A stretch of 64,000 nt of DNA from an uncultured Bacillales bacterium. Lineage in GTDB: Bacteria; Bacillota_I; Bacilli_A; RFN20; CAG-826. Each line of letters begins with the position of its first letter. The first letter of the stretch is position 1. A model generated the notes under the pieces. That model made no database searches and was not told where the DNA came from. It saw only the letters and a program-made list of their open reading frames with translations. The stretch spans positions 47,081-111,080 of the forward strand of contig CAMKPL010000001.1 of the NCBI GenBank assembly GCA_946414655.1. The letters run 5' to 3'. The position numbers and the translations under genes were made by a program. Shown one piece after another: positions 7,037 through 58,479 of the stretch.

Positions 7037-8047
7037 TTAACGGCGATCACTTGGGAGCTTATCGTGAACAAATAATGCCATAACAGCTTTAGCTGTGTGG
7101 ATTCTGTTCTCGGCTTCTTGATAAACCACTGATTGTGGTCCGTCGATAACCTCATCAACAACTTCGTTCACACGGTCGGCTGGAAGGGCGTGCATGTAAC
7201 GGCATGTTGGTTTGGCTAAAGCCATTTTTTCTGGTGTACACTTCCATGCTTTAAGAGCAAGTAATGCATCATCAACAACTGTGGTTGATTGGTTGGTGAC
7301 CCAAGAACCCCAGTTCTTTGGGAAGACGACATCAGCATCTTTATAAGCGGCATCCATGTCGTGAGTAATGGTTAATGAACCACCATTTTCAGCGGCATTT
7401 TTGCGGGCTTTTTCGATAACCCAGTCTGGTAAATCATAACCTTCTGGATATGCTAAGGTAACATCGATACCATAGCGTGGGAAAAGAAGAACTTGGCTAA
7501 CCGGAACTGAAATTGGTTTCTTGTGAGTTGTGGCCATCGCCCAAATAACAGAAACTTTTAAGTGCTTTGTTTTTCCGAATTCATCTTCAATGGTCATTAA
7601 GTCCGCAAGAGCTTGCATTGGGTGATATAAATCACATTGTAAGTTAATGATTGGGACTGTGGACCATTTGGCCATTTCGCGGATGTATTTGTTTCCTAAG
7701 CCCCAGTTACAATATCGGCAAGCGATCATGTGACCAAAGCTTGAAAGAATAACCGCGGTATCCTTGGCAGATTCACCATGAGCAATTTGCATCATGGATG
7801 TGTCAAGGAAGGTAGCGTGTCCGCCAAGTTGAGCCATACCACTTTCGAAAGAGTTACGGGTTCTTGTTGATTGTTCAAAGAACATCAAGAAACCTGTTTT
7901 TCCTTCTAACCATGGGGTCTTTTCGTTGGCGTAGAACGCATCTTTAAAGTCATGAGAGACTTTGAGCATGTAGTCGATTTCTTCTTTAGTAAAATCTTCT
8001 AAAGTAATGAGATGTCGACCGGCAAATCTTGGTGCTATTTTTTCCAT
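7037..8047 (-). CDS. Knotted-type (YgeW/AOTCase-like) carbamoyltransferase
   Basis: STRTR and HPMQALAD carbamoyl-phosphate motifs, MHALPADR, Pro-rich loop WAMATTHKKPISVP; context ygeY and carbamate kinase. Confidence 0.85.
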   Translation of the reverse strand: MEKIAPRFAGRHLITLEDFTKEEIDYMLKVSHDFKDAFYANEKTPWLEGKTGFLMFFEQSTRTRNSFESGMAQLGGHATFLDTSMMQIAHGESAKDTAVILSSFGHMIACRYCNWGLGNKYIREMAKWSTVPIINLQCDLYHPMQALADLMTIEDEFGKTKHLKVSVIWAMATTHKKPISVPVSQVLLFPRYGIDVTLAYPEGYDLPDWVIEKARKNAAENGGSLTITHDMDAAYKDADVVFPKNWGSWVTNQSTTVVDDALLALKAWKCTPEKMALAKPTCRYMHALPADRVNEVVDEVIDGPQSVVYQEAENRIHTAKAVMALFVHDKLPSDRR

Positions 8048-8059
8048 TTCTAAATCTCC

Positions 8060-9280
8060 TTATTTTTGTTTTGCGAGGTTTTCAAGGTAAAGACCTGGAA
8101 TTGTCGCATAGAGAGCAGCACACACGACTAAGTCGCGTTTTCTGGTCTTTTCATTTGGGGCGTGTGCTTCTTTTTCATCGCCTGGACCAAAGCCAATGCA
8201 AGGAATTCCGAAGCGTCCCATAATGGAAACACCATTGGTGGAGAATGTCCACTTATCAATCACTGGGGCTTTCTTGAAGAGTCCTTCATAACCTTGTTTT
8301 AAGGATTGAACATAAATGGAATCTTCTGGAATAACCCAGGTTGGGAAGTAGCATTCTTGTTTATAAACAAGACCAGTATAAGCTGGGCGTTCATAATCAT
8401 ACATTGAAACTTCTGCTTTCGCACGTTTCACACTTGGTAAATTTTCAATTTCCGCAATGGAAGTCTTATCGTTTTCTCCGACTGTTAAACGACGGTCGAG
8501 AGAAATCCAGCATCCATCAGCGACAGCACAACGGCTTGGAGACTTGTGGAAGATTTGGGAAATTGTGACTGTTCCTTTACCGAGGAATGGGTCATAGGCT
8601 AAACCAGTTTCATTGAGTTTTTCAATGTCTTTGATGATGTCAGCCATTTTATAAATGGCGTTATCACCACGTTCTGGTGCACTACCATGGCAAGAGATAC
8701 CACGAACGTTGACTTTGATTTCCATACGTCCACGGTGTCCACGATAGATTTGGCAGCTTGTTGGTTCAGTTGAAACAACAAATTCTGGTTTAATCTTGTC
8801 TTGCTCAATAATGTACTTCCAGCAAAGACCATCACAGTCTTCTTCTTGGACAGTACCGGTCACAAGTAAGGTAAAGTCATCTTCAAGACCGAGATCTTTA
8901 ATGATTTTACCGGCATAGACCATTGAGGCCATACCACCTTCTTGGTCACTTGTTCCACGACCACCGATATATGTTTCATCTTCGAAACCTTCATATGGAT
9001 CAAACTTCCAGTTTTTGATTTCTCCGATACCAACGGTATCGATGTGTGCATCCATGGCGATTAAGTGCTTACCATGGCCAATGTAACCTAAGACGTTACC
9101 CATTGGGTCGATGTCGACTTTGTCGAAACCAACTTTGAGCATTTCTTCTTTAATGCGAAGAACAACTTCTTTTTCGCCACATGACTCAGATGGAATCTTC
9201 ACCATGTCGCGAAGGAATTTAGTCATATCTTTTTGATATGATTCAGCTTTCTTAAGGATTTCTTCAAATGAAACTTTCAT
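8060..9280 (-). CDS. ygeY: YgeY family M20 metallo-amidohydrolase
   Basis: [50 protein letters not shown]. Confidence 0.92.
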
Positions 9281-10650
9281 TATTTAATTTCCTTTCCGCG
9301 CATTTCTTTAATCTTCTTATCATATTCGAAGACTTTGTTGTATTCTTTTTCCCAGAATTCTGGATGTCTCATCTCATCAAGATAAGATTGCTTGTAACCA
9401 AATTTAAGCCAATCGGATTCTTTTTGCTTAAAGAGTTTCTCTTTAGCTTCTTTACCACGTGTGTCTAAGACATAACGAGTATCGGCTCCGGCAAAGACAT
9501 CTTGATACCAACGTTCTAAGACGTGGTCAGTCACTTCGAGTTCACGTTCGTGTAAGTTTTGAATAACGGATGGATAGCGGTCAAATGAGTCTGTTGCGAT
9601 AGTTACAACATTATCATCTGGTCCGAGTTTGAGGTATTTGGCCATTTTGATGGCACCTAAAATGTTGCAAATACCAGAAACACCAAAGAGGTTTTCCATT
9701 TCTTTGGCAACTTTGGCTGGAACACCATGTTTTTCAAGGATCTTTGCGCCTTCATGAACGACGGCTAAACCACGGACACAATCATCATCGATGATTTGAG
9801 TAATAAAGTCGGTTGTTAAGGCGTTGTGAATAAGAGTAATCATCTTATCGCCAATACCCTCGATTCGGTGTTGTCCTAAACCACCATTGGTGAGTGTTGA
9901 ACATTCATGTGGTTCAAGAGCAACAATCTTACATTCTGGGAAGACTTGTTTAATTTGGTCACCAGCAGCTAATGTACCAGCAGAACCTGGTGCAGAGCAG
10001 AAGCAAGCAATACGACCATTACCAATACCTTTGACAGCTTCAATACAGGAATTACCTGTAACGTGTCTATGGAAACGATAGTTTGGTAAGAGTTCGAATT
10101 GAGCAAGAGTTCTGTTTTTTGGATTCTTCTTTAATTCGTAAGTTCTTTCGAGAGTAAGAATAACGTCTGATTCGGAACCTGGAGTTAAATCGAGTTTGGC
10201 TCCGTATTTTGAGATACGTTCATATCTTTCTTTCGACATGTTGTCTGGCATGATAACGATGGCGTCATACTTCATTAAGTTAGTAATGTAGCTAACACCG
10301 ATACCAAAGTTACCAGTTGATGGTCCAAGAATTGTGTGTTTTCCTGGAATAATTTCCCCATCCACACAACCTTCCATAAGTGTGGCATAAGCTGGACCCA
10401 CTTTGTGGGAGCCAGATGGGAAGTTCTTACCAAATAAGACGACAATGTTGGCGTCAACACCGGTTAAGCCTTTTGGTAAGACAATTTTGTTAACCTCATT
10501 CTTTTCGTTTTTCCAAGTGATGTTGAAGAGGTTAATTGGATCAAGTTCGTTTTCTTTGATCGCTTTGAGGGCTTTCGCTCTCACTTCTGGGTCTTGGTGT
10601 GATGGATTGAGCATCTCATCATACGTTGGCCCAAATGGGATTTTTGACAT
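9280..10650 (-). CDS. Fold-II PLP enzyme, extended cysteine-synthase-like (456 aa), substrate unknown
   Basis: SGSHKVG (Schiff-base Lys), PSTGNFG, APGSAGT, HRIEGIG; long N- and C-terminal extensions. Confidence 0.8.
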
Positions 10651-10651
10651 A

Positions 10652-11896
10652 CTAAATAGCTCCTTTTTCTTTCAAAAATTTATCCAATTCTTCAAGGTTT
10701 GGTTTCATCGGTTCAGGCATGGATACCGCCTTTTGACCGTTGACTGGATCTTTTAGACCATTGCCAGTCACAATGGTTGTTACGGTTTCACCTGGTTTAA
10801 TAATACCTTGTTCCACCGCTTTCTTTATACCGGCTATTGCGGCCACGCCAGCTGGTTCTCCGAAGATACCTTCGGTTCTTCCAAGTAGCGACATGGCTTT
10901 AATAATATCACTATCAGGTACAGAAATCCAAGCACCATGCGATAAACTTATCGCATTTTGTGCTTTTACAGGGTTTCTTGGGATACCGACAGCGATAGAG
11001 TCGGCAAGGGTGTTTTCATCGGCTTCCTTAAGTGGTTCTCCTGTTTCAGAAGCAATCACAAATGGGGCACAGCCAGTTGATTGAACACCAAGGATTTTCG
11101 GGACTTTTTTAATCAAACCTAACTTAAAAAACTCGGCAAATCCCTTATAAACGCCACCAACTGTACATCCGTCACCAACAGATATCGCAACCCAATCAGT
11201 CGGTTCAAAGTTGAGTTGTTCAGCAATCTCCATCGAGACTGTTTTCTTTCCTTCGACCATGAATGGGTTGATGGCAGCATTACGATTGTACCAACCGTAT
11301 TTATCGATCGCTTGTTTAGAAAGTTGGAAAGCGGCTTTGTAGTCGCCATCAACCTTAACTAAAGTAGCGCCGTATAAACAAATTTGAGTGGCTTTGCCAA
11401 TCGGAGCACGTTTCGGAACAAAGATTACTGCTTTGAGTCCAATATGTGCGGCTTGGCAAGCACAGCTAGAGGCAGCATTACCGGTTGAAGAACAGGCAAT
11501 TGTTTTTGCGCCTGCTTCTACAGCTTTTAAAACAGCTACTCCACTAGCTCTATCTTTAGATGAACCACTTGGATTCAATCCGTCGTCTTTGACGTAGAGT
11601 TCTTTTACGCCAAGTTCTTTTTCAAGACGACGAGCTCGATAAAGTGGGGTCCATCCAACACGTAACATTTCATCAATGTGGTCTTCTTGAATGCCCATAA
11701 TTGGAGCATAACGCCACATTGAGTAGTTGCGATTATTTTCAAAATATTCGCGTGTTAAAACTTTCTTTAATGCATCGTAGTCATAAACGACATCGAGAAT
11801 GCCTTTTTCTCCGCAATGTGGACAAGTTAAGCCAACTTCGCCTTCCTTAAATTCGGCTCCACAAAGAGTGCATTTATAACCTTTAATGTAACTCAT
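10652..11896 (-). CDS. Threonine synthase-like fold-II PLP enzyme with N-terminal zinc ribbon
   Basis: CTLC..CPHC, LNPSGSSKDR, SSTGNAA, VGDG, TLADSI, EPAG, TGNGLKD. Confidence 0.85.
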   Translation of the reverse strand: MSYIKGYKCTLCGAEFKEGEVGLTCPHCGEKGILDVVYDYDALKKVLTREYFENNRNYSMWRYAPIMGIQEDHIDEMLRVGWTPLYRARRLEKELGVKELYVKDDGLNPSGSSKDRASGVAVLKAVEAGAKTIACSSTGNAASSCACQAAHIGLKAVIFVPKRAPIGKATQICLYGATLVKVDGDYKAAFQLSKQAIDKYGWYNRNAAINPFMVEGKKTVSMEIAEQLNFEPTDWVAISVGDGCTVGGVYKGFAEFFKLGLIKKVPKILGVQSTGCAPFVIASETGEPLKEADENTLADSIAVGIPRNPVKAQNAISLSHGAWISVPDSDIIKAMSLLGRTEGIFGEPAGVAAIAGIKKAVEQGIIKPGETVTTIVTGNGLKDPVNGQKAVSMPEPMKPNLEELDKFLKEKGAI

Positions 11897-12750
11897 TATT
11901 TCCTACCTCCAACAATGTCATCAATGAACTTATTAAAGATGTTCATCGAGACTGTTTGACGATATTCTTTATTACTTCTTTGGTCATCGATTGGAGCAAT
12001 AATTTGTGCAAAATCACCAGCAATTTGCGGTTGTTTTGCTTTTAATTCTTCTAATGAAAGACCAACAACTTTTGCTTCAAGTTCTTTGCTTCTTGCCGGA
12101 CGAACTGAGACCGAACCAAAGCAACAAGCAAACTTAGTAACAACGTTCTTCTTCACTTCGTAATAACCAGCAAAGGAGAGTTTAGAAATTGAATCAGCTC
12201 GACGTGAGCCAACCTTAAACCAAAGTTCGCCAGTGTATTCAATTTTTGGGAAAATAAGTTCAGTAATTAATTCATTTGGATGACGATCGACTTTACGAAC
12301 GCCAAGAACAAAATCTTTGGCATCAACTAAACGAACTCCATCAACTGATTCAAGTTTCACTTTTGCATCAAGAAGAGCGTCGATAACAATTGTGTCTCCG
12401 GCTGGAGAAGCATTCGCGATATTCCCAACAAGTGTGCAGAAATGTCGAATATTCGTTGATGCAACTTCACAAATCGCTTTTCTTAATAAAGAAGGACAAA
12501 GCTTATGGTGCTCAATTTCATGCATTGTTGCTGTAGCACCAATGTGAACGCCTTCTTTATCTTCGTAGATGTTTGCTAGTTCCTTAATATGTGAAACATA
12601 TAAAACATCTTTATCAAATAAAGGAGCATAACCAGCAACATTCTTTTTGATAACCATCATGTCGCTTCCACCGGCAACAATGTAAGCATCATGGTTAGCT
12701 AAAAAGTCGAGAGCTTCTTTTTTGGTATAAGCAATTTTCTTTTCTACCAT
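11896..12750 (-). CDS. Xanthine dehydrogenase-family FAD-binding subunit
   Basis: AGGSD, IRHFCTLVGNIANASPAGD, PIDDQRS. Confidence 0.9.
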   Translation of the reverse strand: MVEKKIAYTKKEALDFLANHDAYIVAGGSDMMVIKKNVAGYAPLFDKDVLYVSHIKELANIYEDKEGVHIGATATMHEIEHHKLCPSLLRKAICEVASTNIRHFCTLVGNIANASPAGDTIVIDALLDAKVKLESVDGVRLVDAKDFVLGVRKVDRHPNELITELIFPKIEYTGELWFKVGSRRADSISKLSFAGYYEVKKNVVTKFACCFGSVSVRPARSKELEAKVVGLSLEELKAKQPQIAGDFAQIIAPIDDQRSNKEYRQTVSMNIFNKFIDDIVGGRK

Positions 12751-13217
12751 AATCCAGCTCCTTTCTTACTGGCAATTACTACCGCTTGAACAATAGCTTG
12801 ATAACCAGTGCAGCGGCATAAATTACCACTCATATGTGCTTTAATTTCTTCCTCAGTTGGATGAGGATTATGAGAAAGTAGAGATTGAGCAGCAATAATC
12901 ATTCCTGGAGAGCAGAATCCACATTGGGATCCTCCGACTTCAGCAAATGCTTTTTGTAAAACATCAAATTGTTTGGTTTCTTTGAAACCTTCAATAGTCA
13001 CAATCTCGTGGCCTTCTACGTTAGCTAATGGAAGCAAACAGCTATTCACTGAATATCCATCCATTAAAACAACGCAGGCTCCACAAGATCCTTCGCCACA
13101 ACCTTCTTTTACTCCTTTTAATGAGAAATGATCACGAAGGACATCAATTAAACGCATGCTTGGGTCTAAATCAACAGCAACATCTTTGCCATTTAATCGA
13201 AACTTAATGCTTGTCAT
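12744..13217 (-). CDS. Xanthine dehydrogenase-family 2x[2Fe-2S] subunit
   Basis: GCGEGSCGAC, QCGFC, GNLCRCTGY. Confidence 0.93.
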   Translation of the reverse strand: MTSIKFRLNGKDVAVDLDPSMRLIDVLRDHFSLKGVKEGCGEGSCGACVVLMDGYSVNSCLLPLANVEGHEIVTIEGFKETKQFDVLQKAFAEVGGSQCGFCSPGMIIAAQSLLSHNPHPTEEEIKAHMSGNLCRCTGYQAIVQAVVIASKKGAGLW

Positions 13218-15303
13218 GATTAATCACCTCCATGATGTATTCTGGTGTAGCAGGAATCTTATTCACTTTGTGACCAATTGCTTGTTCAATGGCAAGCGCA
13301 ATCGCTGGAGCTCCACCAACGAGAGTTAATTCACCCATTCCTTTAGCGCCGTTAGCACCATAAATAAATGGGTTATCAATAAATGCTGTCTCCATAGGAG
13401 GAGCATCTTCAAATGTCGGAATAATGTAGTCAGATAATGAACGATTACGGAATTTACCATCTTTAATTCCCATGTGTTCAAGATAACCATAGCCTAAACC
13501 TTGGAGTAATCCTCCATCAGCCTGGCCAACGGCAATACGTTCATCAACAACTCGACCAACATCATAAGTTGACCAACAATGATCAACTTTAATTTGGTAA
13601 GTTACTGGATCAAATGAGACTTCAACAACGTTGACACCCCAAGAATAGGATGGATAAGCGTCACCTTGCATTGTATCTTCATCCCAATGGATATAACTTG
13701 GTCCGACATAACTTTCAACATGTTCTTGTCGAACTCCACTCTTCCAGATTTTCTTTAATTGTTTAGCAGCTTTTTCCATTAGGAAACCAACAATAATAAT
13801 TGTTCTAGAAGCCGCTGTTGGTCCGGAGTCAGGAGTGTGATCAGTATCAGCCGCCTCCATTGTGCATTGTTCAGCTGGTAAACCAAGTGTATTAGACACG
13901 ATACGTGCTAAAGTTGTACGGTTTCCTTGACCAAAGTCAGCACTTGAAGCATAAACATGGATATGATCATTCTCATCTTTGATGAGCTTGACTTTACCAT
14001 TAATAATTGTTGATTCACCAGAACCAGTAAATCCACATCCGTGAAGGAATAAGGACATACCAATTCCTTTGTTAGAGCCTGGTTGGGCGTATTCAACTAC
14101 TTTGCGTTTGTAGTCGGACATTTCCATGGCTTTGTCTACTAACTGAGGAAGAATAATTGGGTCATGGAATTCACCAGAATTTGTTGTGATATCTCCTTGT
14201 TTTGCAAGGTATTTCATTCTTAACTGTAATGGATCAACTCCAAGTTCTTTAGCAACGTGATGGATAAACATTTCCATTGCAAAGATTGTTTGTGGAGCAC
14301 CAAATCCACGGAACGCGGCAGTCGGAACGGTGTTTGTACAATAAACATCTCCAGCCACATCTAGGTATTCAAATACGTATGCATTGCATGAAGCGATGAG
14401 CGCACGTGATAAGACAACACCAGAGCAGCCTTTATAAGCACCACCATTAAGTTTGACACGAATCCTTAAACCAAGAATTTCGTTATTCTTGCCGATAAAT
14501 GCTTCGTATGTTGAAACTGATGGGTGACGTTTTGTTGTATAAGCAATATCTTCAAAACGTTCATAACACATCTTCACTGGACGATGAATTTTATTAACCG
14601 CCACGGCAAGTTGTGAACCCATTAAACTTGGATAGTGTTCTTTGCCACCAAATGCTCCGCCAACAGCAGGTTGTTTAACACGAACTTTTTCTGGAGCAAT
14701 ACCAAGAGCTCGAGCAACAGCCTTTCTAATATAGAATGGACATTGCATTGAACCAGTTAAATAGAACTTATCATCTTCATCGATATAACAAAGAATACCT
14801 TGAGGTTCGATGTAGGCTTGTTCTTGATAACCGGTCTCATAAGTTTCTTTAATTGTTTTAACAGCATTTTTCTCAGCCTTCGAAAAATCACCTTTTGTAA
14901 ATTCTTTATGAATATATGAATTCACAAGATCGTAAACTGGTTTTTCTTCTTCATAAATAACCGAGATTTGCTGGCATAATTTGTGTAAAACCTCTTTATT
15001 TTCTCCAACAAATAAACCAATTGCTTCACCGACATAATTAACTTCTTTATCAGCAAAAATTGGCCAATCGGAGAAGATAATATTAACAACATTTTCACCA
15101 GGAATATCTTTTGCTGAAATCCAATAATAACCTTCTGGAAGTTCAGGCAGTTTGATTTCCTTTATCTTTCCTTTAGCAATTGTTGATCGCACGGTTTGAG
15201 CATAAAGCATTCCTGGTAACACAAAGTCATCAGTAAACTTTGCTTCTCCGCGGATCTTTTCAGGGAAGTCAATTTTTGGTGTACTTGACTTATATAGTTC
15301 CAT
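13204..15303 (-). CDS. Xanthine dehydrogenase-family molybdopterin subunit (XdhA-like, 699 aa)
   Basis: GGAFGGKE, AFRGFG, PTAASR, GAKGMGE. Confidence 0.92.
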   Translation of the reverse strand: MELYKSSTPKIDFPEKIRGEAKFTDDFVLPGMLYAQTVRSTIAKGKIKEIKLPELPEGYYWISAKDIPGENVVNIIFSDWPIFADKEVNYVGEAIGLFVGENKEVLHKLCQQISVIYEEEKPVYDLVNSYIHKEFTKGDFSKAEKNAVKTIKETYETGYQEQAYIEPQGILCYIDEDDKFYLTGSMQCPFYIRKAVARALGIAPEKVRVKQPAVGGAFGGKEHYPSLMGSQLAVAVNKIHRPVKMCYERFEDIAYTTKRHPSVSTYEAFIGKNNEILGLRIRVKLNGGAYKGCSGVVLSRALIASCNAYVFEYLDVAGDVYCTNTVPTAAFRGFGAPQTIFAMEMFIHHVAKELGVDPLQLRMKYLAKQGDITTNSGEFHDPIILPQLVDKAMEMSDYKRKVVEYAQPGSNKGIGMSLFLHGCGFTGSGESTIINGKVKLIKDENDHIHVYASSADFGQGNRTTLARIVSNTLGLPAEQCTMEAADTDHTPDSGPTAASRTIIIVGFLMEKAAKQLKKIWKSGVRQEHVESYVGPSYIHWDEDTMQGDAYPSYSWGVNVVEVSFDPVTYQIKVDHCWSTYDVGRVVDERIAVGQADGGLLQGLGYGYLEHMGIKDGKFRNRSLSDYIIPTFEDAPPMETAFIDNPFIYGANGAKGMGELTLVGGAPAIALAIEQAIGHKVNKIPATPEYIMEVINHDKH

Positions 15304-16400
15304 TATTCTTCCACCTTTGTATACGTGAGAGCTTTAACTGGACACTTAGAAACACAAAGTCCACAGCGGAAACATTTCTCACTGTTGAATTTTGGTTTTC
15401 CATCCATTTCAATGGCGAAGTATGGACAAACTCTAGAACATGTTCCACAACCTGTGCACTTACTGGCATCAAGTTTTGGAGTTTCCCCCATACCAAACAT
15501 GGCATGGTTTTCTAATTGAGTATCAATAACTTCTTGGACAGATTTAAATCCATATTTTTCAAGAGTTGCTGGAAGGTCAGCAAGAATCTTGGCATAAAGT
15601 TCTTTGCCTCTAAGCATTGCTGCCGAGAGCATTTGAACACCGCTTGCGCCAGCGAGAAGGAATTCAATAACGTCGCTAGCTGAAGCAATTCCACCGACAC
15701 CAATTACAGTTAATGATGGTTCGGCTTGTTTAATTGTATAAACAGTTGCTAAAGCAATGTTCTTAATATAAGGTCCACTTGTCCAAGCAAAACCTTTCGC
15801 GTTTCCATAGATAATGCTACGGGAAGCAATGTCAATCTTCATTGAAGGACCAAGGGAGTTAACGGCCACAACACCATTAGCACCATTAGCTTTGATTGTA
15901 TGAGCAAAACCTTCTGGATCTGGCATGTGGGCACTAATTTTCATATAGAATGGTTTCTTGGTGTGCTTACGAATTGTGGCAACAGTTTCACCAAGCGCAT
16001 TCAAGTCGTTTCCAACGTAGTGAGTAGAAACTTCAAATGCATCAGCAAATTTATCAAGAAGAGGAATTAAAATTTCCATATCTTCTTTGGTATAACCAAC
16101 TGAAATTATAAGAGGTTTACCAACTGACTTCTTTTTGTAATATGGTAAGAACTCGTTGATCCACTTTTCCTTAGTATATTCTGTCCATAATTCACAGTTC
16201 ATGATGTAATCACGATCACCATAAATACATGGGTGTGGGATGTGAGCATCCTTTGTGGAGATTGTTTTGGAAACAATCGCACCAAGTCCAGCGACTTGTT
16301 CTAACCAGAGCATTTTCTCGGCGTCACCAACAAGTGGACCGGCAGCTGGCATGAGTGGGTTTTCTAATTTTAACCCATCAAATTTTGTTGAAATATCCAT
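15303..16400 (-). CDS. PreA/dihydropyrimidine-dehydrogenase-like FMN enzyme with C-terminal 2x[4Fe-4S] and an altered catalytic loop
   Basis: NPLMPAAGP, KTIS, MKIS, GVGGI, two CxxCxxCxxxCP motifs; start 16400 with GGAGG RBS. Confidence 0.8.
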   Translation of the reverse strand: MDISTKFDGLKLENPLMPAAGPLVGDAEKMLWLEQVAGLGAIVSKTISTKDAHIPHPCIYGDRDYIMNCELWTEYTKEKWINEFLPYYKKKSVGKPLIISVGYTKEDMEILIPLLDKFADAFEVSTHYVGNDLNALGETVATIRKHTKKPFYMKISAHMPDPEGFAHTIKANGANGVVAVNSLGPSMKIDIASRSIIYGNAKGFAWTSGPYIKNIALATVYTIKQAEPSLTVIGVGGIASASDVIEFLLAGASGVQMLSAAMLRGKELYAKILADLPATLEKYGFKSVQEVIDTQLENHAMFGMGETPKLDASKCTGCGTCSRVCPYFAIEMDGKPKFNSEKCFRCGLCVSKCPVKALTYTKVEE

Positions 16401-16402
16401 CG

Positions 16403-17692
16403 TTATTCCTCCTTCACTTTGGACCATAAATTACTCGCGAATTTGCGAGCTTCAATAACTTCATTAATGAGCTTTTTGCTGGTAATTTTGTAATCTTTGA
16501 CACGTTTTGTACCAGCAGTATAAACATCGCTTGGTTTTAAAGCTGGGAATAATCCGTAGAAGAGATGACCTAGTGCATTTGAAGCATCCATTTTTGTAAA
16601 TGGAGTGTACTTCACGCGCATAAAGTCAGCTTCATAACCTTTCTCAAATTTTCCAAGTTTTAAGCCTAAGCGATCTCCGACATATTTATAAGAGTTTTCA
16701 ATCATTTGATGAACATCTCCAAGGCCAATACCTAAAGGAGATTCGCTCTTCAAATGACCAGTATAAAGAACATTGTTATATTCGTTAGCCATATTAGAAC
16801 TTAAGCCGTCGTTTCCAACCATAACTGGAATTCCATAATCTAAATATTTACGGACATTTGGAAGACCAACAGCATTGTTCATATTGGATGTTGTATTAAC
16901 AACCATGTAGCAGCCTCTTTCCTTAATAATTTGAAGTTCTTCATCATTAAGATGAACACCATGAACAATTAAGGAGTTTGGAACAAGTAATCCAAAATCA
17001 TCAAAGCGTTTAATGATTGGCTTTTTGTATTTTTCTTCTGAATCTGATTCATCATCTAGTGCCTCAGCAACGTGAACGTGTAAAGGAACTCCGTTTTGTG
17101 CTTTTGCAACTCTTCTAAGTGTTGCGTTTGATAGTGACATTGAAGCGTGCAATCCAAATAAACCTTCACCAGGATAACGTTTAGCAAAATTTTTGTTTTC
17201 TTTAATACAATCGCTAACATTATAACGATCGCTTGTTTCAAAGCAGAAGATTCCATGCATTTTGAGTGGTCCGACAAAAGCTTTTCTTAAAGACTTCAAA
17301 GAGCCAATAATTTCTCCTGATGCATGGTGGTCAATAACTGATGTTACACCGTTTAAAAGGAATTCTTCACCGGCACAAATTGCGGAATAGTAAGTTTCTT
17401 GATTAACAAGTTTTGCATCAATCTTCCACCACATTTGATCCAAGATTTGCTGGAAATTTTTTGGATTAAACGGTAAAGCAAGACCTCTAGCAAAAATCGA
17501 ATAAATGTGAGCGTGGGCACACACAAATGTAGGAAGAAGTAGGTCGCCTTTATAATCTTCGACTGATTGGTATTCGCCTTTTGGGAATTCGCTCATTGGG
17601 CCACATTTCACGATTTTGTCATCAAAAAGTAGATAACCGCATTCGATGTAGTTTTTGTAGTCATAAATTCGAGCATTAATAATTGCTTTCAT
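16403..17692 (-). CDS. SsnA-like metal-dependent amidohydrolase
   Basis: CAHAHIYS, DHHAS, GLHAS, HVHVAE, VHGVH, GNDG. Confidence 0.85.
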   Translation of the reverse strand: MKAIINARIYDYKNYIECGYLLFDDKIVKCGPMSEFPKGEYQSVEDYKGDLLLPTFVCAHAHIYSIFARGLALPFNPKNFQQILDQMWWKIDAKLVNQETYYSAICAGEEFLLNGVTSVIDHHASGEIIGSLKSLRKAFVGPLKMHGIFCFETSDRYNVSDCIKENKNFAKRYPGEGLFGLHASMSLSNATLRRVAKAQNGVPLHVHVAEALDDESDSEEKYKKPIIKRFDDFGLLVPNSLIVHGVHLNDEELQIIKERGCYMVVNTTSNMNNAVGLPNVRKYLDYGIPVMVGNDGLSSNMANEYNNVLYTGHLKSESPLGIGLGDVHQMIENSYKYVGDRLGLKLGKFEKGYEADFMRVKYTPFTKMDASNALGHLFYGLFPALKPSDVYTAGTKRVKDYKITSKKLINEVIEARKFASNLWSKVKEE

Positions 17693-18999
17693 TATTTAAC
17701 CTCCCCACAATTTAAGTTCTTTCCCTGATGTGGAACAATTTTTCGATTTTTTAACACAAATTGTCCACGAACAAGCACTGTTTCAAATTCACCAGAACCA
17801 AGAATTCCATCATAAATGGAGTAATCACAAGTACCGTGGTTTTCATTTTCAAAATAGTCTTCTTTTTCTAAAAACACCGACAAATCTGCATCCATTCCAA
17901 CTTTGATTTCTCCCTTGGTTGGGAAATCTTGAATTTTTGCAGAATTAAATGACATTTTGTCGATGATTTCATCACCAAATCGTCGATACATTGTTGAGAA
18001 TGAATGCTCAATTCCTCCAACACCGAGAGGGAATCCTTTTAGAGTTGGATAATCTTTGTCTTTCTTCATAAATGAACAATGGTCGGTGCCAATTGTTTCA
18101 ACATCTTTATAGTAGGCGATTAAAAGTTGTCGTTCTCTTTCACTTCTTAGTGGAGGTGCAAACGTAAATAGTTTTCCATTCTCACCTTCTAAAACAGAGT
18201 TATTAAAGATGAAATATTGTGGACAACTCTCAACAAATAAATTCTTATTAAGAATGTCTGGGAATTGTTCTTTAAGTGCTTTTAATGTTTCACCACTTGA
18301 GCAATGAACCATATAGAAGTTTCCGCCAGTTTCACGAACAAGTTTAGCAAGTTTTAGTGCCTCACTTGTTTCACTCATTGATGGGCGAGAAACTGGTAAA
18401 TCTTTATAAGTATAAGAATCGCGAAGATCGATTAAATCATCGTTTTCAATGTGCGCTTCGATAAGAACGTTGTACTTCTTAGAAAGTTGTAATAATTTTT
18501 CGATATCTTTCTCATAAGTACGTCGACCAGTGTCACTATAAGTTGTAAACAACTTAATTGTTCTCATTCCAAGTTTAACAACGGTTTTGACGTATTCTTC
18601 TAAATCGCCATTTGGCATCTTAATGCAAGCGTGCATGTGATAGTCAACAAGTGACTTCTTCGCGAGTTCAAGACGTTCATAAAACGACTTCTCTAAATCT
18701 TTGGCATTACTAGTTGGATCAAGGAAATCAACAATGGTTGTTACACCGCCATAAGCGGCACAAACTGAACCACTATAAAAGTCATCCACCGAAGTTAATC
18801 GCCCACAGTTCAGTTCAAAATGAACATGTGGATCAATTAATCCAGGAAGAACTTTCTTTCCTTTTGCGTCAAGAACTTCTTTAGCTTCGACTTCTTCTGT
18901 TCCAACGTAAGAAATTTTCTCACCTAAAACAGCCACATTGACGTTTTGCCATTTGTGGTCAATCCAAACTAATCCGTTCTTTATTAATAAGTCGTGCAT
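17692..18999 (-). CDS. Dihydropyrimidinase/hydantoinase (HyuA-like) cyclic amidohydrolase
   Basis: PGLIDPHVHF, AAYGGVTT, IKLF, HIEN, VHCS, GTDHCSF. Confidence 0.85.
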   Translation of the reverse strand: MHDLLIKNGLVWIDHKWQNVNVAVLGEKISYVGTEEVEAKEVLDAKGKKVLPGLIDPHVHFELNCGRLTSVDDFYSGSVCAAYGGVTTIVDFLDPTSNAKDLEKSFYERLELAKKSLVDYHMHACIKMPNGDLEEYVKTVVKLGMRTIKLFTTYSDTGRRTYEKDIEKLLQLSKKYNVLIEAHIENDDLIDLRDSYTYKDLPVSRPSMSETSEALKLAKLVRETGGNFYMVHCSSGETLKALKEQFPDILNKNLFVESCPQYFIFNNSVLEGENGKLFTFAPPLRSERERQLLIAYYKDVETIGTDHCSFMKKDKDYPTLKGFPLGVGGIEHSFSTMYRRFGDEIIDKMSFNSAKIQDFPTKGEIKVGMDADLSVFLEKEDYFENENHGTCDYSIYDGILGSGEFETVLVRGQFVLKNRKIVPHQGKNLNCGEVK

Positions 19000-21314
19000 T
19001 ATTTCTTTTCTTTGACCGCCTTAAAGATTCTTTCAGGAGTAATTGGTAAGTGATGGATTCTTACGCCAAAGGCGTTATAGACAGCGTTACATAAAACAGC
19101 TGGTGGAGTATCAATACCAATTTCACCAACAGATTTCGCACCAAATGGTCCTGTTGGTTCATATGAATCAGCAAATTCGGTGACTAATTCACCAACTTCA
19201 GCGCGGGTTGGAATGTGATAGACATCGAAGTTTGTTGTTAATAGTTTTCCTTTGTCGTTATAAATGACTTCTTCAGAAGAGGCCATTCCATAACCTTGGA
19301 TAATTCCACCTTCAACTTGGCCTTTAGCCAGCATTGGGTTAATTGTTGTACCACAGTCAGTTACTGTGACGTACTTAATCATCTTGTATTCGAATGTTTC
19401 AGTATCGAATTCGAATTCACCAAACGCAGCCATAAATGGAGGTGGAGAAACATGTCCATGGAAGGATTCGGTAACAGCGATTTGGCGGGTGTCTTGGTTA
19501 TATAAACGATTGGTTGCTAAATCTTCTAAGGAGAGAGATTTTTCACCAGATGTAAACATCTTTCCGTCAAATTCAACAGTGCCGACTTTCACATTCATGT
19601 ATTCAGCAGCTTCTTTAACAAGTCTTTCTCTCATCTTAGATGCAGCGTTCCATGCGGCATTACCACTAACATAAGTTGTGGAGGATGCATAAGCACCACA
19701 GTCATATGGAGTTAAATCTGTATCAGAAGAATAGATAATGACTTTATCAACAGTGGTTTGAAGTTCTTCAGCAACGATTTGAGCAATCATTGTGTCGGAA
19801 CCTTGGCCAATATCGGTCGCACCAACAGTGACCATGTAAGAACCACCATCATTGAGTTTAATTGTACAAGAACCCATGTCTAAGAATGGAATGCCAGAAC
19901 CTTGCATAGCAATAGCGCAGCCAACTGAACGAACTTTATGTGGTCCGACTTCTTTTCTTGGCCATTTCTTATCCCATTCAATGAGTTCACGACCACGTTT
20001 AATACAATATGGAAGCTTGCAGCTTTCCATAATCATCGCAGTACCTTCTGTACCTTCACCCATAATTTCAAAGATTGGGGAAGTTTCTTTTTCCTTCATT
20101 GAGTTCAGCTCACGAAGTTTAATTGGATCCATACCCATCTTTTCTGCAAGTTCATCTATGATGGATTCAACAGCATAGTTTCCTTGAATAGCACCGTATC
20201 CACGATACGCACCAGCAGAAACGTGGTTGGTATAAACAACGTGGCCACCAAATTTCACAGCCTTAACTTTGTTATATAAAGGAAGAACCTTTGAACCAAC
20301 AATCATAAAGACTGTTAAGGCGTGTTCACCGTAAGCACCAGTATCACTTAAAGCACGGCAATCAATGGCTTGAATAATACCATCCTTTGTTGCGCCGACT
20401 TTGAGAGTAATTTTCATTGGGTGACGTGTGTATGAACATCCAAATACTTCTTCACGAGTGAAGACACACTTACTTGGTTTCTTTGTTCGTAATGTAACTA
20501 AAGCGCAGAACATTTCACCATGGAAAGCTTGTTTACCACCAAATCCACCACCGACACGTGGTTTAACAACACGAATCTTTTCTACAGGAAGACCCAATGT
20601 CTTTGACATAATTCTTCTCATGTGGAATGGGGTTTGGGTTGTTGAATAAACAACTAAACGGTTATGTTCATCTAAGCGAGCATTACATGAGTGCGGTTCA
20701 AGCATCGCGTGAGCTTGGGCTTGAGAATAGAAAGTGTCTTCAACAACATAGTCACATTTCTTTAATTCTTCAGCGACATTACCAACTTCCATCTCATAGG
20801 AGGCAGCTAAATTCTTCTTTGGATCAAAGCCAATTGGGAACATTTCATGAATGCCATCTTCTGGGTGGATGACAGATTTATTTTCATAAGCTTTTTCAAA
20901 GTCGAGAACTGGTTCAAGAACTTCATAATCGACTTTGATTTTCTTCATTGCTTCTAAAGCAACTTCTTCGCTAACTGCAGCAACAGCAGCGACTTCGTCT
21001 CCTACATAACGAGCGTATTCATCAAAGATGAACTTATCATGTGGAGACGGTTCTGGATAACCTTGTCCAGCACGTGTAAAGGCAACATGTGGAACGTTAT
21101 CTTTGGTGAGAATACAAGCGACACCAGGAACTTTTTCCGCTTCACTAACATCGATTGATTTAATACGAGCAAAAGCGTGAGGACTTCTTAGTAGCTTAAT
21201 TACTAAGGAGTTTTGTTGAGCAAGATCATCAGTGTAGAAAGAACGACCTTGCATTAAGCCTTTACCATCAAGACTTGGAGTAATGTTATTAACAACACGG
21301 AAATTCTTTTTCAT
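18999..21314 (-). CDS. XdhD-like molybdopterin-binding subunit (771 aa)
   Basis: GGGFGGKQ, AYRGYG, GATDIGQG, GAYASS, GAKSVGE. Confidence 0.9.
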   Translation of the reverse strand: MKKNFRVVNNITPSLDGKGLMQGRSFYTDDLAQQNSLVIKLLRSPHAFARIKSIDVSEAEKVPGVACILTKDNVPHVAFTRAGQGYPEPSPHDKFIFDEYARYVGDEVAAVAAVSEEVALEAMKKIKVDYEVLEPVLDFEKAYENKSVIHPEDGIHEMFPIGFDPKKNLAASYEMEVGNVAEELKKCDYVVEDTFYSQAQAHAMLEPHSCNARLDEHNRLVVYSTTQTPFHMRRIMSKTLGLPVEKIRVVKPRVGGGFGGKQAFHGEMFCALVTLRTKKPSKCVFTREEVFGCSYTRHPMKITLKVGATKDGIIQAIDCRALSDTGAYGEHALTVFMIVGSKVLPLYNKVKAVKFGGHVVYTNHVSAGAYRGYGAIQGNYAVESIIDELAEKMGMDPIKLRELNSMKEKETSPIFEIMGEGTEGTAMIMESCKLPYCIKRGRELIEWDKKWPRKEVGPHKVRSVGCAIAMQGSGIPFLDMGSCTIKLNDGGSYMVTVGATDIGQGSDTMIAQIVAEELQTTVDKVIIYSSDTDLTPYDCGAYASSTTYVSGNAAWNAASKMRERLVKEAAEYMNVKVGTVEFDGKMFTSGEKSLSLEDLATNRLYNQDTRQIAVTESFHGHVSPPPFMAAFGEFEFDTETFEYKMIKYVTVTDCGTTINPMLAKGQVEGGIIQGYGMASSEEVIYNDKGKLLTTNFDVYHIPTRAEVGELVTEFADSYEPTGPFGAKSVGEIGIDTPPAVLCNAVYNAFGVRIHHLPITPERIFKAVKEKK

Positions 21315-21766
21315 TATTTCTTACCTCCAAGATATTTTTCGACAGCGTTACCTTGGCTTTGTAAACCAGTACAACGACATAAGTTTCCAACTAAGTAATC
21401 ATTGATTTCTTGACGAGTTGGATGTGGGTTTTCTTCTTTTAAGGCGTGAACAACTAGGGCGAGAGCTGCTGAGCAATATCCACATTGGTCGGCGCCTTCT
21501 TTAGCAAAATATTCGGAAAGTTGAGCAGCTTCTTCTTGGATGGATTCAACAGTCATAACTTTCTTTCCTTCAATTGAAGCTGTTAGAACAGAACAAGATA
21601 GAGTTAGTTTTCCATCAACGAGAACTGTACAAGCTCCGCAAGCGGAGGCGTTACAACCTTTCTTAACTGATTTGACTCCGTTAGCGCGAAGTGAATCAAG
21701 AAGGTATTCACCTGGTTTAACATAGTAGACAACATCTAAACCATTTAAATTGAATTTGACTTCCAT
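21314..21766 (-). CDS. 2x[2Fe-2S] subunit of the second molybdo-hydroxylase
   Basis: GCNASACGAC, QCGYC, GNLCRCTG. Confidence 0.92.
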   Translation of the reverse strand: MEVKFNLNGLDVVYYVKPGEYLLDSLRANGVKSVKKGCNASACGACTVLVDGKLTLSCSVLTASIEGKKVMTVESIQEEAAQLSEYFAKEGADQCGYCSAALALVVHALKEENPHPTRQEINDYLVGNLCRCTGLQSQGNAVEKYLGGKK

Positions 21767-22543
21767 TTATTTAACCTCCTCTAAAGCGCGTTTTAAGTAA
21801 ACACGAGCAAGATGGCTTCGGTATTCACCTTTGGCGCTCATTGAGTCGCCAAGTTTTAACTCTTGCATAGCAAGCTCAACGGCTTGATCAACATCCTTGC
21901 CACCTTCATTTAAATATTTCATCGCTCCTTCGCATAAACATGCAACTAATGGACGAGAACCAACCACAATTCGGTAATCTTTGTCTTTAGTGACACAGAC
22001 ATTCAGAATTGGGTAATCTAGAGCAGTCATTTTAACTTTCTTAAAGAAAGATTTGGCAGAACTCTTATAAATACGAACTTCAGTTAAAATTCCATCAGCA
22101 AATCCTGGTTTCTTCACGTATTCATCAAGTGATATGACTTCTTCTGGATAGAAAACTAAATCAACTTTAAATCCAAGAAGAGCAGTAATCACATCAGAGA
22201 AACCATATTTTCCGTAAACGGAACCTCCGATTGTGGCGCTATTGCGGAAAGCTGGACCCATGATTTGATGAACCGCATCAGAGAGAACTCCGCCACCAAT
22301 CTTTTTAATAATTGGAGAGGTTTCAAAAGCTCTTTGAGTAACCAACGCGCCAACTGAAACATAATCTTTTTCTTCTTTAATTTGGTCTAAACCTAGACGA
22401 GAAAGATCGATTAATTTGTCGACGTCGCCATTTCCTTTCTTTAACCATAAACCACCACCAAGAATTTTATTTTTTGGTGATGATTTTTTGAGGGAGTATG
22501 CTTCTTCCAAAGAAGCTGCACGAACATATTCGTTTACTTTCAT
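21767..22543 (-). CDS. YgfM-like FAD-binding subunit
   Basis: ILGGGLWL, FRNSATIGGSV, SAKGEYR. Confidence 0.85.
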   Translation of the reverse strand: MKVNEYVRAASLEEAYSLKKSSPKNKILGGGLWLKKGNGDVDKLIDLSRLGLDQIKEEKDYVSVGALVTQRAFETSPIIKKIGGGVLSDAVHQIMGPAFRNSATIGGSVYGKYGFSDVITALLGFKVDLVFYPEEVISLDEYVKKPGFADGILTEVRIYKSSAKSFFKKVKMTALDYPILNVCVTKDKDYRIVVGSRPLVACLCEGAMKYLNEGGKDVDQAVELAMQELKLGDSMSAKGEYRSHLARVYLKRALEEVK

Positions 22544-23170: not shown

Positions 23171-23262
23171 GCAAGCTCATAAAAAGAAAATTAAATAATG
23201 CAAATATGTGCGTGTTTTGCTGTAGATTTTGTATAATATTGAAGTACGAAAGAGGTAGAAAA

Positions 23263-24180
23263 ATGTCACGTTATGTTGTCTCATTAGGAGGCAATGCACT
23301 AGGCAACAACGCCGAAGAGCAGAAGGCTCTTCTAAAGGGTGTTGCAAAAAGCATTGTCCACTTGATTAAACTTGGAAATGAAGTTGTGATTGTCCATGGA
23401 AACGGACCACAAGTAGGCATGATTAATCTTGCTTTTACTGAATCAACTTCAGCTCCAGATATGCCATTCCCAGAATGTGGAGCAATGAGCCAAGGTTATA
23501 TTGGCTTCCATATTCAAAACGCCATTCAAAACGCACTTAAAGACGAAGGTATTCAAAGAAACGTTGCCACTGTTGTCACGCAAGTGCTCGTTGATAAGGA
23601 TGATCCACTTTTCAAATCTCCATCAAAACCAGTTGGAGCATTCTATAGTGAAGAAGAAGCAAAGAAAATTGCTGCCGAAAAAGGCTATACGATGAAAGAA
23701 GATGCTGGTCGAGGTTGGAGAAGAGTTGTTGCTTCACCACTTCCAGTTGATGTTGTTGAAAAAGAATCTATTTCCCGTCTTGTTAAAGCAGGTGATGTTG
23801 TCATCTGTGCTGGCGGAGGTGGAATTCCAGTAATTAAAAATGGGGATCACTTAGAAGGTATCGCCGCAGTTATCGACAAAGACTATGCATCCGCAAAAGT
23901 TGCTGCTCTTGTTGATGCTGACTATCTTGTTATTTTAACGGCTGTTGATAATGTCTATATTAACTTCCGCAAGCCAGATGAAAGGAAACTTGAACGTGTT
24001 TCTAAAGCGGAAATGGAAGAATATTTAAAAACCGATTACTTTGCTAAAGGAAGTATGTATCCAAAGGTCAATGCCTGTGTAAAATTCTTAAACGAAAAAC
24101 CAGGCAAAACCGCAATTATTTCATCCTTAGAAAAAGCAAATTTAGCTGTTGAATTAAAAGCTGGAACAATTATTAAATAA
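23263..24180 (+). CDS. arcC: Carbamate kinase (YqeA/ArcC-like)
   Basis: SLGGNAL, HGNGPQVG, AMSQGYIG, RRVVASP, GGGGIPV, IDKD, GSMYPKV; start 23263 (AGAGG RBS). Confidence 0.95.
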   Translation: MSRYVVSLGGNALGNNAEEQKALLKGVAKSIVHLIKLGNEVVIVHGNGPQVGMINLAFTESTSAPDMPFPECGAMSQGYIGFHIQNAIQNALKDEGIQRNVATVVTQVLVDKDDPLFKSPSKPVGAFYSEEEAKKIAAEKGYTMKEDAGRGWRRVVASPLPVDVVEKESISRLVKAGDVVICAGGGGIPVIKNGDHLEGIAAVIDKDYASAKVAALVDADYLVILTAVDNVYINFRKPDERKLERVSKAEMEEYLKTDYFAKGSMYPKVNACVKFLNEKPGKTAIISSLEKANLAVELKAGTIIK

Positions 24181-32467: not shown

Positions 32468-32591
32468 ATGAAAATACAGGCAATTCCTGATTGTTTGTTT
32501 AAAAATGACGATAATTTATTCTTAAAAACCATATAAGGATAAATACGACGGTTATTTCTTTTAAAGAAATGTTGTGATATATTCTATAACT

Positions 32592-35522: not shown

Positions 35523-35523
35523 T

Positions 35524-57040: not shown

Positions 57041-57182
57041 GGTTAGCCGCATCAAACTTTATGCTTTTAATATTCTACACACATACACATAAAATTCCCA
57101 CATCGAAAAATTTTGGGATAAAATCCACAAAATGTTTCGTTGGAGTTTTGCTATAAAATCACCTGCAAATCCAAAATAAATT

Positions 57183-57212
57183 AAAAAGAAGCACCTCTGT
57201 GAGATGCTTCTT
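57183..57212 (-). terminator. Terminator after preA
   Basis: AAGAAGCA-N11-TGCTTCTT with T-run on the minus strand. Confidence 0.7.
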
Positions 57213-57230
57213 AAATATTGATAATATCGA

Positions 57231-58478: not shown

Positions 58479-58479
58479 T

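Follow-up and report, generated by a model that had tools for sequence, protein, structure and literature searches.

Which reaction is catalyzed by a protein that is named as a dihydroorotate dehydrogenase but is encoded in an operon for purine breakdown, directly behind an ssnA-like gene? This question is raised by a locus in a 64,000-nucleotide stretch of DNA from an uncultured Bacillales bacterium (contig CAMKPL010000001.1, positions 47,081 to 111,080; here called the window). The gene in question (15303..16400, (-) strand) encodes a protein of 365 amino acids with a flavin mononucleotide (FMN)-binding DHO_dh barrel and a C-terminal 2x[4Fe-4S] domain. A first-pass annotation had described it as a stand-alone PreA-like reductase with a rewritten catalytic loop and possibly a split substitute for YgfK. 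With a probability of about 0.7, we assign it as a UacX-type reductase which acts as a ferredoxin-linked stand-in for YgfK (DOPOR) in the 2,8-dioxopurine (isoxanthine) pathway of anaerobic urate and purine degradation. This assignment is based on a gene context that is conserved across phyla, on the absence of ygfK from the pathway operon, on motifs shared with YgfK and on the independent proposal of UacX (PMC12507026).

The reductive uric acid or 2,8-dioxopurine pathway was worked out in 2025. XdhD (DOPDH) turns urate by reduction into 2,8-dioxopurine (also called yanthine), which is dearomatized by the NADPH-dependent YgfK (DOPOR). SsnA and HyuA then open the rings, YgeW/YqeA and YgeY take off the ureido groups, and YgeX yields pyruvate. 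YgfK is a demonstrated 2,8-dioxopurine reductase that needs, or is helped by, coupling to SsnA, and its product is the demonstrated substrate of SsnA. In the study of Li et al. (2025, Life Metab) the reduction step was detectable only when it was coupled to SsnA (PMC12507026). These authors also observed that C. difficile has no ygfK and instead possesses a PydA homolog with a PF01180 domain and no flavin adenine dinucleotide (FAD) domain. They named this homolog UacX (UniProt Q181U4), likened it to PydAc and suggested that it uses ferredoxin; in their SsnA neighborhood network (15-gene window) any PF01180 protein was counted as UacX (PMC12507026).

The window protein has the PF01180 domain, lies in the SsnA neighborhood of a uricolytic cluster and contains no FAD- or NAD(P)H-binding domain. 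A closer link to the clostridial protein is provided by Paraclostridium dentum (locus L105), which belongs to the same family (Peptostreptococcaceae) as C. difficile. Its cluster encodes a sigma54 regulator, YgeX, YgeY, a 526-residue Amidohydro_3 protein (UacY type), SsnA and a xanthine/uracil permease, followed by a 367-residue DHO_dh and Fer4 protein with the motif ELSTHY, HyuA and a fused FeS-molybdenum XdhD without an FAD subunit. This make-up equals that given by Li et al. for C. difficile. Consequently, the clostridial UacX is probably of the type that we call ExSTHY after its active-site motif. The window protein is ~38% identical to the P. dentum protein and thus probably belongs to the UacX family. 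It is best filed as a fairly divergent member of a family which has already been named and placed in the pathway. The substitution of YgfK has likewise already been published as a proposal (PMC12507026), and the corresponding inference of the first-pass annotation reproduces it. New here are the shortened, cysteine-less loop, the motifs which link the family to the barrel of YgfK, the wide distribution of the SsnA-UacX association, which extends to several archaeal phyla, and, in Bacilli of gut and rumen, a variant of the operon whose terminal enzymes differ.

The C. difficile system and the window operon resemble each other in the FMN barrel without FAD or NAD(P)H domain, in the nearby ssnA and hyuA genes and in the absence of ygfK from the cluster. 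They differ in that the window operon contains an ornithine carbamoyltransferase (OTC)-like transferase and a carbamate kinase in place of UacY, two other pyridoxal phosphate (PLP) enzymes instead of YgeX, and xanthine dehydrogenase (XDH)-family enzymes with FAD subunits. No YgfK-like gene was found in the window. The YgfK step is the only step of the 2,8-dioxopurine pathway for which the operon offers no other candidate, and the UacX-like protein is the sole one without an assigned step. Since the only uncovered step meets the only protein without a step, the UacX-like protein is the candidate for the replacement of YgfK.

The open reading frame (ORF) scan listed this gene as 15303..16427 ((-), 374 amino acids), with an upstream ATG at 16427 that falls within the ssnA-like gene. 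The true start is the ATG at 16400, because the GGAGG at 16412-16408 is located 7 nt 5' of this ATG and because the homologs have lengths of 357-365 amino acids. All residue numbers given here count from this start. The Shine-Dalgarno sequence AAGGAGGAA (16406..16414, (-)) lies within the last ssnA codons; the stop codon TAA of ssnA occupies 16405-16403, and the junction of both genes reads ...AAG GAG GAA TAA CG ATG GAT ATT.... At the 3' end the TAA of the UacX-like gene and the start codon ATG of the following gene overlap (TAATG). Due to this overlap and to the position of the Shine-Dalgarno sequence, the gene is translationally coupled on both sides. The first-pass annotation had given the coordinates 15303-16400 exactly, as seen from the Shine-Dalgarno position, the ssnA stop codon and the homolog lengths. 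It had also correctly stated the coupling to the abutting ssnA-like gene and the parallel to E. coli, where ygfK and ssnA are neighbors.

In order to place the gene in a wider context, related loci were collected by two pattern searches. The first search, with one genome per species, yielded 199 close relatives, the best 80 of which were kept (Bacilli clade). The second search was seeded with distant ExSTHY proteins by means of a 7-sequence alignment (a 20-sequence alignment of distant members gave no conserved stretch) and yielded more than 533 relatives. The locus collections were ranked by similarity with at most 80 loci each, and 160 related loci were compared. All 80 relatives of the Bacilli clade stem from metagenome-assembled genomes (MAGs) of uncultured Bacilli or Acholeplasmatales-like bacteria, mostly from rumen, gut or feces; one contig of Bacillales bacterium UBA4278 encodes a protein identical to the window protein. 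The gene order of the window recurs in all of these 80 loci. Enough flanking sequence was available for 75 of them, and in 74 of these ssnA was found directly upstream. ExSTHY proteins of other phyla occur in Clostridium sardiniense, C. paraputrificum, C. tetanomorphum, Paraclostridium dentum, Orenia and Propionispira, in Thermotogota, Halanaerobiales, Acidobacteriota and Chloroflexota, and in the archaeal groups Hadarchaeota, Bathyarchaeia, Desulfurococcales (Thermogladius), Thorarchaeota and Heimdallarchaeota (L082-L086, L097-L098, L109, L112-L113, L157-L161). Among the other-phyla loci with at least 6 kb on both sides, 35 of 43 contain an SsnA homolog (at least 30% identity) within 6 kb, and several of the remaining ones show a weaker SsnA-like match directly upstream. 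The groups with ssnA within 6 kb include Hadarchaeota, Heimdallarchaeota, Chloroflexota, Acidobacteriota, Thermotogota and Clostridium. A YgfK-like gene was absent from 159 of the 160 related loci.

The archaeal ExSTHY loci mostly adjoin SsnA-like genes. This is clear for Heimdallarchaeota, where thrC-like and XDH subunit genes follow; the Thorarchaeota loci showed no clear ssnA link. The published surveys consulted give SsnA for bacterial phyla only.

A gene for a molybdenum (Mo) subunit of the XDH family lies no more than 8 kb away in 51/51 loci of the Bacilli clade and in 29/43 loci of other phyla. Together with the coupling to the downstream Mo subunit gene and the absence of the classical catalytic cysteine, this proximity would suit a diaphorase-like electron-transfer subunit that links ferredoxin to the neighboring XDH-family enzymes and reduces no substrate of its own. 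We consider such a role improbable. In the other phyla the linkage to SsnA is tighter than that to XDH, and both XDH sets of the window have their own FeS and FAD subunits. Moreover, the pyrimidine-binding asparagines and all of the substrate-side motifs are invariant and common to the catalytic barrel of YgfK.

Pfam analysis of the 374-residue ORF assigned its residues 13-289 (ORF numbering) to a DHO_dh domain (PF01180, 98.7 bits; 3-291 of 291 profile positions) and also revealed two Fer4 motifs. These are the only domains detected; Pfam gave no FAD- or NAD(P)H-binding domain. Eight cysteines are arranged in two CxxCxxCxxxC motifs of one C-terminal dicluster domain (residues ~308-365; 15306..15479, (-)), and the two clusters are predicted to be bound by C315/318/321/325 and C343/346/349/353. 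The FMN TIM barrel with 2x[4Fe-4S] of the first-pass annotation is therefore confirmed. Structure prediction with AlphaFold2, which had been named there as a check, was performed with a 122-sequence alignment and resulted in a model with a pLDDT of 86.6 and a pTM of 0.85. The model consists of a barrel of the type found in dihydroorotate dehydrogenase (DHOD) and dihydropyrimidine dehydrogenase (DPD), followed by an Fe-S domain. Its best Foldseek matches were pig DPD (TMq ~0.74, with barrel and Fe-S domain both covered) and L. lactis DHODB. Among the solved structures searched, none was of the UacX or YgfK type. The residues K45, N68-x-E70, K154, N181-S182, S208-G209 and G236-G237 are invariant in the family alignment. 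Lys and Asn residues of DPD, as described by Dobritzsch and colleagues, reportedly contact FMN and the pyrimidine, and we take the invariant Lys and Asn residues of the UacX-like protein to correspond to them. This conservation is consistent with a working FMN and pyrimidine site.

The best database names for the window protein and its homologs are 'dihydroorotate dehydrogenase', and its fold and domain order are those of PreA. Both points speak for an ordinary dihydropyrimidine or dihydroorotate dehydrogenase of the PreA, PydAc or PyrD type, possibly with a distant PreT. The remaining evidence makes this explanation highly improbable. No curated NCBIfam family accepts the window protein: the top score was obtained with PyrD (NF005574/TIGR01037; 148.6 and 145.5 bits versus cut-offs of 269 and ~270), and the PreA model NF006183 gave 118.1 bits at a cut-off of 335. 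With scores that far below the PyrD and PreA cut-offs, the protein is probably not the normal dihydroorotate or dihydrouracil dehydrogenase which the first-pass annotation had named as the finding that would speak against its idea. The NxSCP loop of these enzymes is gone, and the corresponding loop is 8-9 residues shorter. PreA of E. coli PreAT and domains IV-V of pig DPD share with the window protein the FMN barrel followed by 2x[4Fe-4S] and the Lys, Asn and Gly-Gly site residues; they differ from it by E-x-N-x-S-C-P in place of the shorter E-V-S-T-H-Y, by the PreT partner and by a pyrimidine instead of a purine context. L. lactis DHODB (PyrD class 1B, 1EP3) achieved the top sequence score among the solved structures (E 3e-33 with the family profile, ~26% identity). 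In contrast to this enzyme, the window protein has no catalytic Cys loop and no PyrK partner and carries an added ferredoxin domain. PydAc of Clostridium chromiireducens, a ferredoxin-dependent DPD, likewise has no NAD(P)H or FAD domains and accepts electrons from ferredoxin or methyl viologen, which pass via Fe-S clusters to FMN (PMC7332683). It reduces uracil, is encoded beside a PydB gene and has two ferredoxin domains, i.e. four [4Fe-4S] clusters flanking the FMN domain (PMC7332683), whereas the window protein has one ferredoxin domain and lies in a purine cluster.

A complete preAT pair is present elsewhere in the window. The PreA at 57231-58478 scored 624 bits (cut-off 335) and is 29% identical to the UacX-like protein; a GltD/PreT-type gene adjoins it at 58480-59712. 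The first-pass annotation had regarded this PreA as the true one, which agrees with both its score and its neighbor. With a genuine preAT pair in addition to the purine operon, the window holds separate reductive pyrimidine and purine systems. No PreT-, PyrK- or GltD-like gene was detected in the window operon, as the first-pass annotation had noticed, and the only such gene in the window is that of the preAT pair 42 kb away. The same holds for the related loci, none of which (0/160) contains a PreT-, PyrK- or GltD-like gene within 10 kb. A PreT partner was rejected on these grounds, and the suggestion that the distant PreT delivers the electrons did not stand.

The most unusual part of the window protein is the loop behind strand beta4. 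It reads A-D-A-F-E-V-S-T-H-Y-V-G-N-D with the motif E-V-S-T-H-Y-V at E123-V129 (codons of E123 to Y128: 16017..16034, (-)), and the window PreA has E-M-N-L-S-C-P-Q at the same place. The EVSTHYV loop contains neither Cys nor Asn. The alignment with the window PreA confirmed the replacement of the catalytic Cys and of the preceding Asn that had been noticed in the first-pass annotation. In the AlphaFold2 model beta4 comprises residues 121-124, a coil takes up 125-132, and helix 4 begins at residue 133. The Glu of beta4 and the Gly ahead of helix 4 are joined by 6 residues, in comparison to 14-15 in PreA and DHODB. DPD and class 1 DHODs bear their catalytic Cys on a mobile lid, which is missing from the window protein. 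An [EV/EI]S[T/C]HY loop is found in 118 of the 120 closest database homologs (STHY in 98, SCHY in 19, pattern unmatched in 2). Due to this conservation the loop is not a product of chance.

At residue 126 (window 16023-16025) 19 of the 120 closest homologs (~16%; EVSCHYVG), including P0087 and P0103, carry Cys instead of Thr. This is the position which HMMER places opposite the catalytic Cys of DHODB, and the variant may represent a natural swap of the proton donor or may be neutral.

The proton donor could not be assigned by alignment, because the registers disagree on S125, T126 or Y128. Counted without gaps from the conserved 'AD', which is the register of the first-pass annotation, S125 occupies the Asn position and Y128 the Cys position. 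The MAFFT alignment with the window PreA deletes 'MNLSCPQ' and pairs S-T-H-Y with T-S-H-A. HMMER places T126 opposite the catalytic Cys of DHODB, and phmmer places S125 opposite residue 671 of the DPD C671S mutant. The acid formed by His/Tyr in the first-pass annotation is one of several readings. It is weakened by the nearest non-STHY relatives, which have PRYV or ARFH instead of THYV: in P0121 and P0122 His127 is replaced by Arg, and residue 128 is Tyr or Phe.

The relationship to YgfK was analyzed by hhalign with family alignments of 85 YgfK N-terminal domains and 150 UacX-type proteins. The UacX-type profile matched the YgfK N-terminal profile with 95.8% probability (E 8e-9) over 262 columns that span the whole barrel; the classical NxSCP (PreA-like) profile reached 51%. 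A family alignment was needed for this result, as a single YgfK sequence gave a probability of 44% only. BLAST of the window protein against E. coli YgfK gave E 1e-5 over the N-terminal 250 residues. The register suggested by BLAST, with 'EVSTH' opposite 'DASDH' of YgfK, was dropped; the profile alignment puts the YgfK beta4 loop V-T-L-S-T-M-H-G-C-P-P ~55 residues later. UacX-type proteins and YgfK have in common several motifs that are not found in PreA, namely PAAGP, PCI (P96-C97-I98 in YgfK), NxE[LW][WS]xE, SVGY (S150-Y153) and S-T-(x)-H. In the last of these, S-T stands at the end of beta4 with a His after it in both (S125-T126-H127-Y128 in UacX; S226-H229 within S226-T227-M228-H229-G-C231-P-P in YgfK), all ~100% conserved. 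These shared motifs are the main new evidence for a common substrate.

E. coli YgfK carries out the reaction which is proposed for the window protein and is encoded in the same adjacency to ssnA. It is a protein of 1032 amino acids with large barrel insertions, a DPD-type Fer4_20, a GltD-like FAD/NADPH part (Pyr_redox_2) and its own C-terminal Fe-S domain. In contrast, the window protein lacks the NADPH machinery altogether; the YgfK loop S-T-M-H-G-C-P-P still keeps its Cys. The alignment with the YgfK FMN domain, as proposed by the first-pass annotation, hence revealed a remote homology. The idea of a split YgfK is supported as a functional replacement and failed in its literal form, since PreA/PyrD sequences are far closer to the UacX type (E 4e-91 in hhalign with PreA-like sequences versus E 8e-9 with YgfK). 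The window protein appears to be a compact barrel with the substrate-side signature of YgfK and not a detached piece of it.

These data can be combined into the following mechanism. A low-potential one-electron donor, most likely reduced ferredoxin, would load the two C-terminal [4Fe-4S] clusters, which would in turn reduce the FMN in the DHOD/DPD-type barrel. The conserved residues N68, N181 and S182 would hold the pyrimidine face of the substrate, presumably 2,8-dioxopurine. A hydride of FMNH2 would be transferred to C6, and C5 would be protonated by a residue of the short S125-T126-H127-Y128 loop. The coupled SsnA would then hydrolyze the dearomatized ring and in this way pull the unfavorable reduction forward, and the remaining steps of the pathway would fall to HyuA, YgeY, the PLP enzymes and the OTC-like transferase together with carbamate kinase. 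Reduced ferredoxin is plausible as the most economical electron donor and would give the SsnA-coupled reduction more driving force than NAD(P)H. It could stem from the oxidation of pyruvate, which is a product of the pathway, or be provided via Rnf. RnfC, RnfD, RnfE and RnfA are encoded at 32574-36860 ((+)), which is 16 kb from the UacX-like gene, on the opposite strand and outside the operon.

At the expected place of RnfG, the ORF 34980-35522 gave no match to an NCBIfam family. A 317-residue ORF (37400-38353, (+)) at the expected place of RnfB also had no NCBIfam match and does not contain a CxxCxxCxxxC motif.

Several observations weigh against the assignment as a ferredoxin-linked YgfK substitute. 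Neither the operon nor the window contains a ferredoxin gene; the dicluster pattern was matched only by the UacX-like protein, RnfC and PreA. Li et al. cloned CdUacX and described a methyl viologen assay in their Methods, and neither the main text nor the supplement gives a result of it (PMC12507026). In the literature searched there is no reported activity for any UacX, and no other paper on UacX in this sense was found. The membership of the window protein in the family was deduced via the P. dentum cluster as a proxy and not via Q181U4. One of the two patterns of the second search contained STHY. For this reason the 100% conservation of the motif in the other-phyla set is biased, while the SsnA linkage is not biased in this way. 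An Anaerolineales MAG locus (L144, 8343-15507) contains ssnA, a UacX-like gene and a full-length ygfK together, so that UacX-like proteins and YgfK are not always alternatives. Finally, non-STHY relatives are also encoded near genes of the SsnA-like, YgeY-like, OTC-like or XDH kind, in the same clusters. Their loop varies (EYVPRYV in P0121, ECVARFH in P0122 and ELSVQYV in a Chordicoccus protein, the nearest non-STHY representatives of 50% clusters), and the STHY loop is therefore not strictly required by that context.

The gene order of L144 is ssnA, a 303-residue ELSTHY barrel without ferredoxin domain, YgfK (41% identical to that of E. coli) and a second DHO_dh and Fer4 protein; L134 and L140 are arranged similarly. 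An interpretation of L144 as a literal split YgfK was dropped, since the adjacent ORF encodes a complete YgfK that has a barrel itself.

Some of these observations would also fit a reductase of the same pathway that acts on another ring, i.e. xanthine, 6,8-dioxopurine, urate or a ureido-pyrimidine produced by a flanking XDH-type enzyme. The operon encodes two distinct XDH-family enzymes of unassigned specificity, relatives with other loops occur in related, non-identical clusters with CDA-type deaminases and nucleoside transporters, and one locus possesses both YgfK and a UacX-like protein. Nevertheless, we regard another ring as unlikely. Apart from the UacX-like gene, the operon corresponds to the 2,8-dioxopurine pathway step by step and leaves the YgfK step alone without a candidate, and the pairing with SsnA, which was demonstrated to act on the YgfK product, is the most conserved feature of the family. 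The first-pass annotation had proposed the reduction of a ring other than uracil. This core idea is well supported, with 2,8-dioxopurine as the most likely substrate according to gene context and YgfK motifs.

The contigs of P0121, P0122 and P0282 (L163-L169) also encode CDA-fold deaminases and Bmp-type nucleoside ABC transporters, and one of them contains OCD/PrpD/CN-hydrolase genes. These clusters are probably related pathways for other substrates, and the differences in the loop perhaps track these substrates.

Gut and rumen anaerobes remove urate by way of the pathway through 2,8-dioxopurine, in which the ring reduction is thermodynamically difficult, and the NADPH-dependent YgfK is the only enzyme for which this step was demonstrated. 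Many organisms, among them relatives of C. difficile, uncultured Bacilli of gut and rumen, Chloroflexota and members of several archaeal phyla, possess no ygfK and carry the gene of such a compact FMN/Fe-S protein beside ssnA. A survey which relies on YgfK homology to detect the pathway would miss these organisms at the reduction step. If the proposed activity is true, the family would provide a small ferredoxin-driven reductase for the engineering of urate-lowering strains, SsnA plus UacX would be the better marker pair for metagenome surveys, and the enzyme would be a natural member of the DPD family that works without a catalytic Cys loop. As the idea is already in print, the gain would be validation and mechanism and not a new concept.

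A more far-reaching scenario is conceivable, which we put forward tentatively and hold to be somewhat doubtful as a whole. The UacX-type proteins and the N-terminal barrel of YgfK might form one ancient DHOD/DPD sub-lineage for 2,8-dioxopurine, in which a short S-T-H(-Y) turn delivers the proton in place of the mobile Cys loop, either as a Thr/Cys-His dyad or with a Tyr as in Old Yellow Enzymes. SsnA-UacX might then be a portable two-gene module distributed from Asgard and Hadarchaeota archaea to gut Bacilli, and the window protein might be one tip of a large family of short-loop DHOD-ferredoxin proteins (ELVSY and similar) that would reduce other N-heterocycles. A large set of ~365-residue DHO_dh and ferredoxin proteins (representatives P0149-P0227) has an even shorter loop with E-L-V-S-Y and similar sequences, in addition to SVGH, DSxGP and GW[LI]SG; we found no function assigned to this set.

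All genes of the operon from 23115 down to 7037 are located on the (-) strand and abut or overlap each other. Upstream of the UacX-like gene lie the ssnA-like amidohydrolase gene (16403..17692; 325 bits to the SsnA model, cut-off 444) and the hyuA-like hydantoinase/dihydropyrimidinase gene (17692..18999). They are preceded by XDH-family set B with the Mo subunit (18999-21314, 771 amino acids), the 2Fe-2S subunit (21314-21766) and the FAD subunit (21767-22543), and by a short gene (22540-23115) that was labelled mocA-like from its position and from a weak tblastn similarity of related loci only. Downstream, XDH-family set A comprises the Mo subunit (13204-15303, 699 amino acids), whose ATG overlaps the TAA of the UacX-like gene, the 2Fe-2S subunit (12744-13217) and the FAD subunit (11896-12750). 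Both XDH-family enzymes which flank the ssnA-uacX-hyuA core scored below all curated cut-offs; one of them may be the urate 6-dehydroxylase (DOPDH/XdhD) and the other a xanthine dehydrogenase. The operon ends with a thrC-like PLP enzyme that bears a CxxC...CxxC ribbon at its N-terminus (10652-11896), a cysK-like PLP enzyme of 456 amino acids (9280-10650), the M20 hydrolase YgeY (8060-9280) and, in YgeW's role, a carbamoyltransferase of the OTC family (7037-8047). A carbamate kinase in the role of YqeA (23206..24180, (+)) is encoded divergently from the operon.

A gene for YgeX (diaminopropionate ammonia-lyase) was not found in the window operon; the thrC-like and cysK-like PLP enzymes take its place. 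In the flanks of the 160 related loci, YgeX and the thrC-like/cysK-like enzymes never co-occur; YgeX alone was found in 8 and thrC-like without YgeX in 87. This exchange suggests a different last step of the pathway. The carbamoyltransferase scored 191 bits with the YgeW model (cut-off 453) and was closest to ornithine carbamoyltransferase with 260 bits (cut-off 281); on these scores it is not a YgeW ortholog. Its conservation amounts to 93-100% within the closest relatives, and the P0121 and P0122 clusters contain versions with 64% identity. Behind the preT-preA pair, the same strand carries the gene of a 1230-residue subtilisin/mycosin-like protease (53363-59712 together, (-)).

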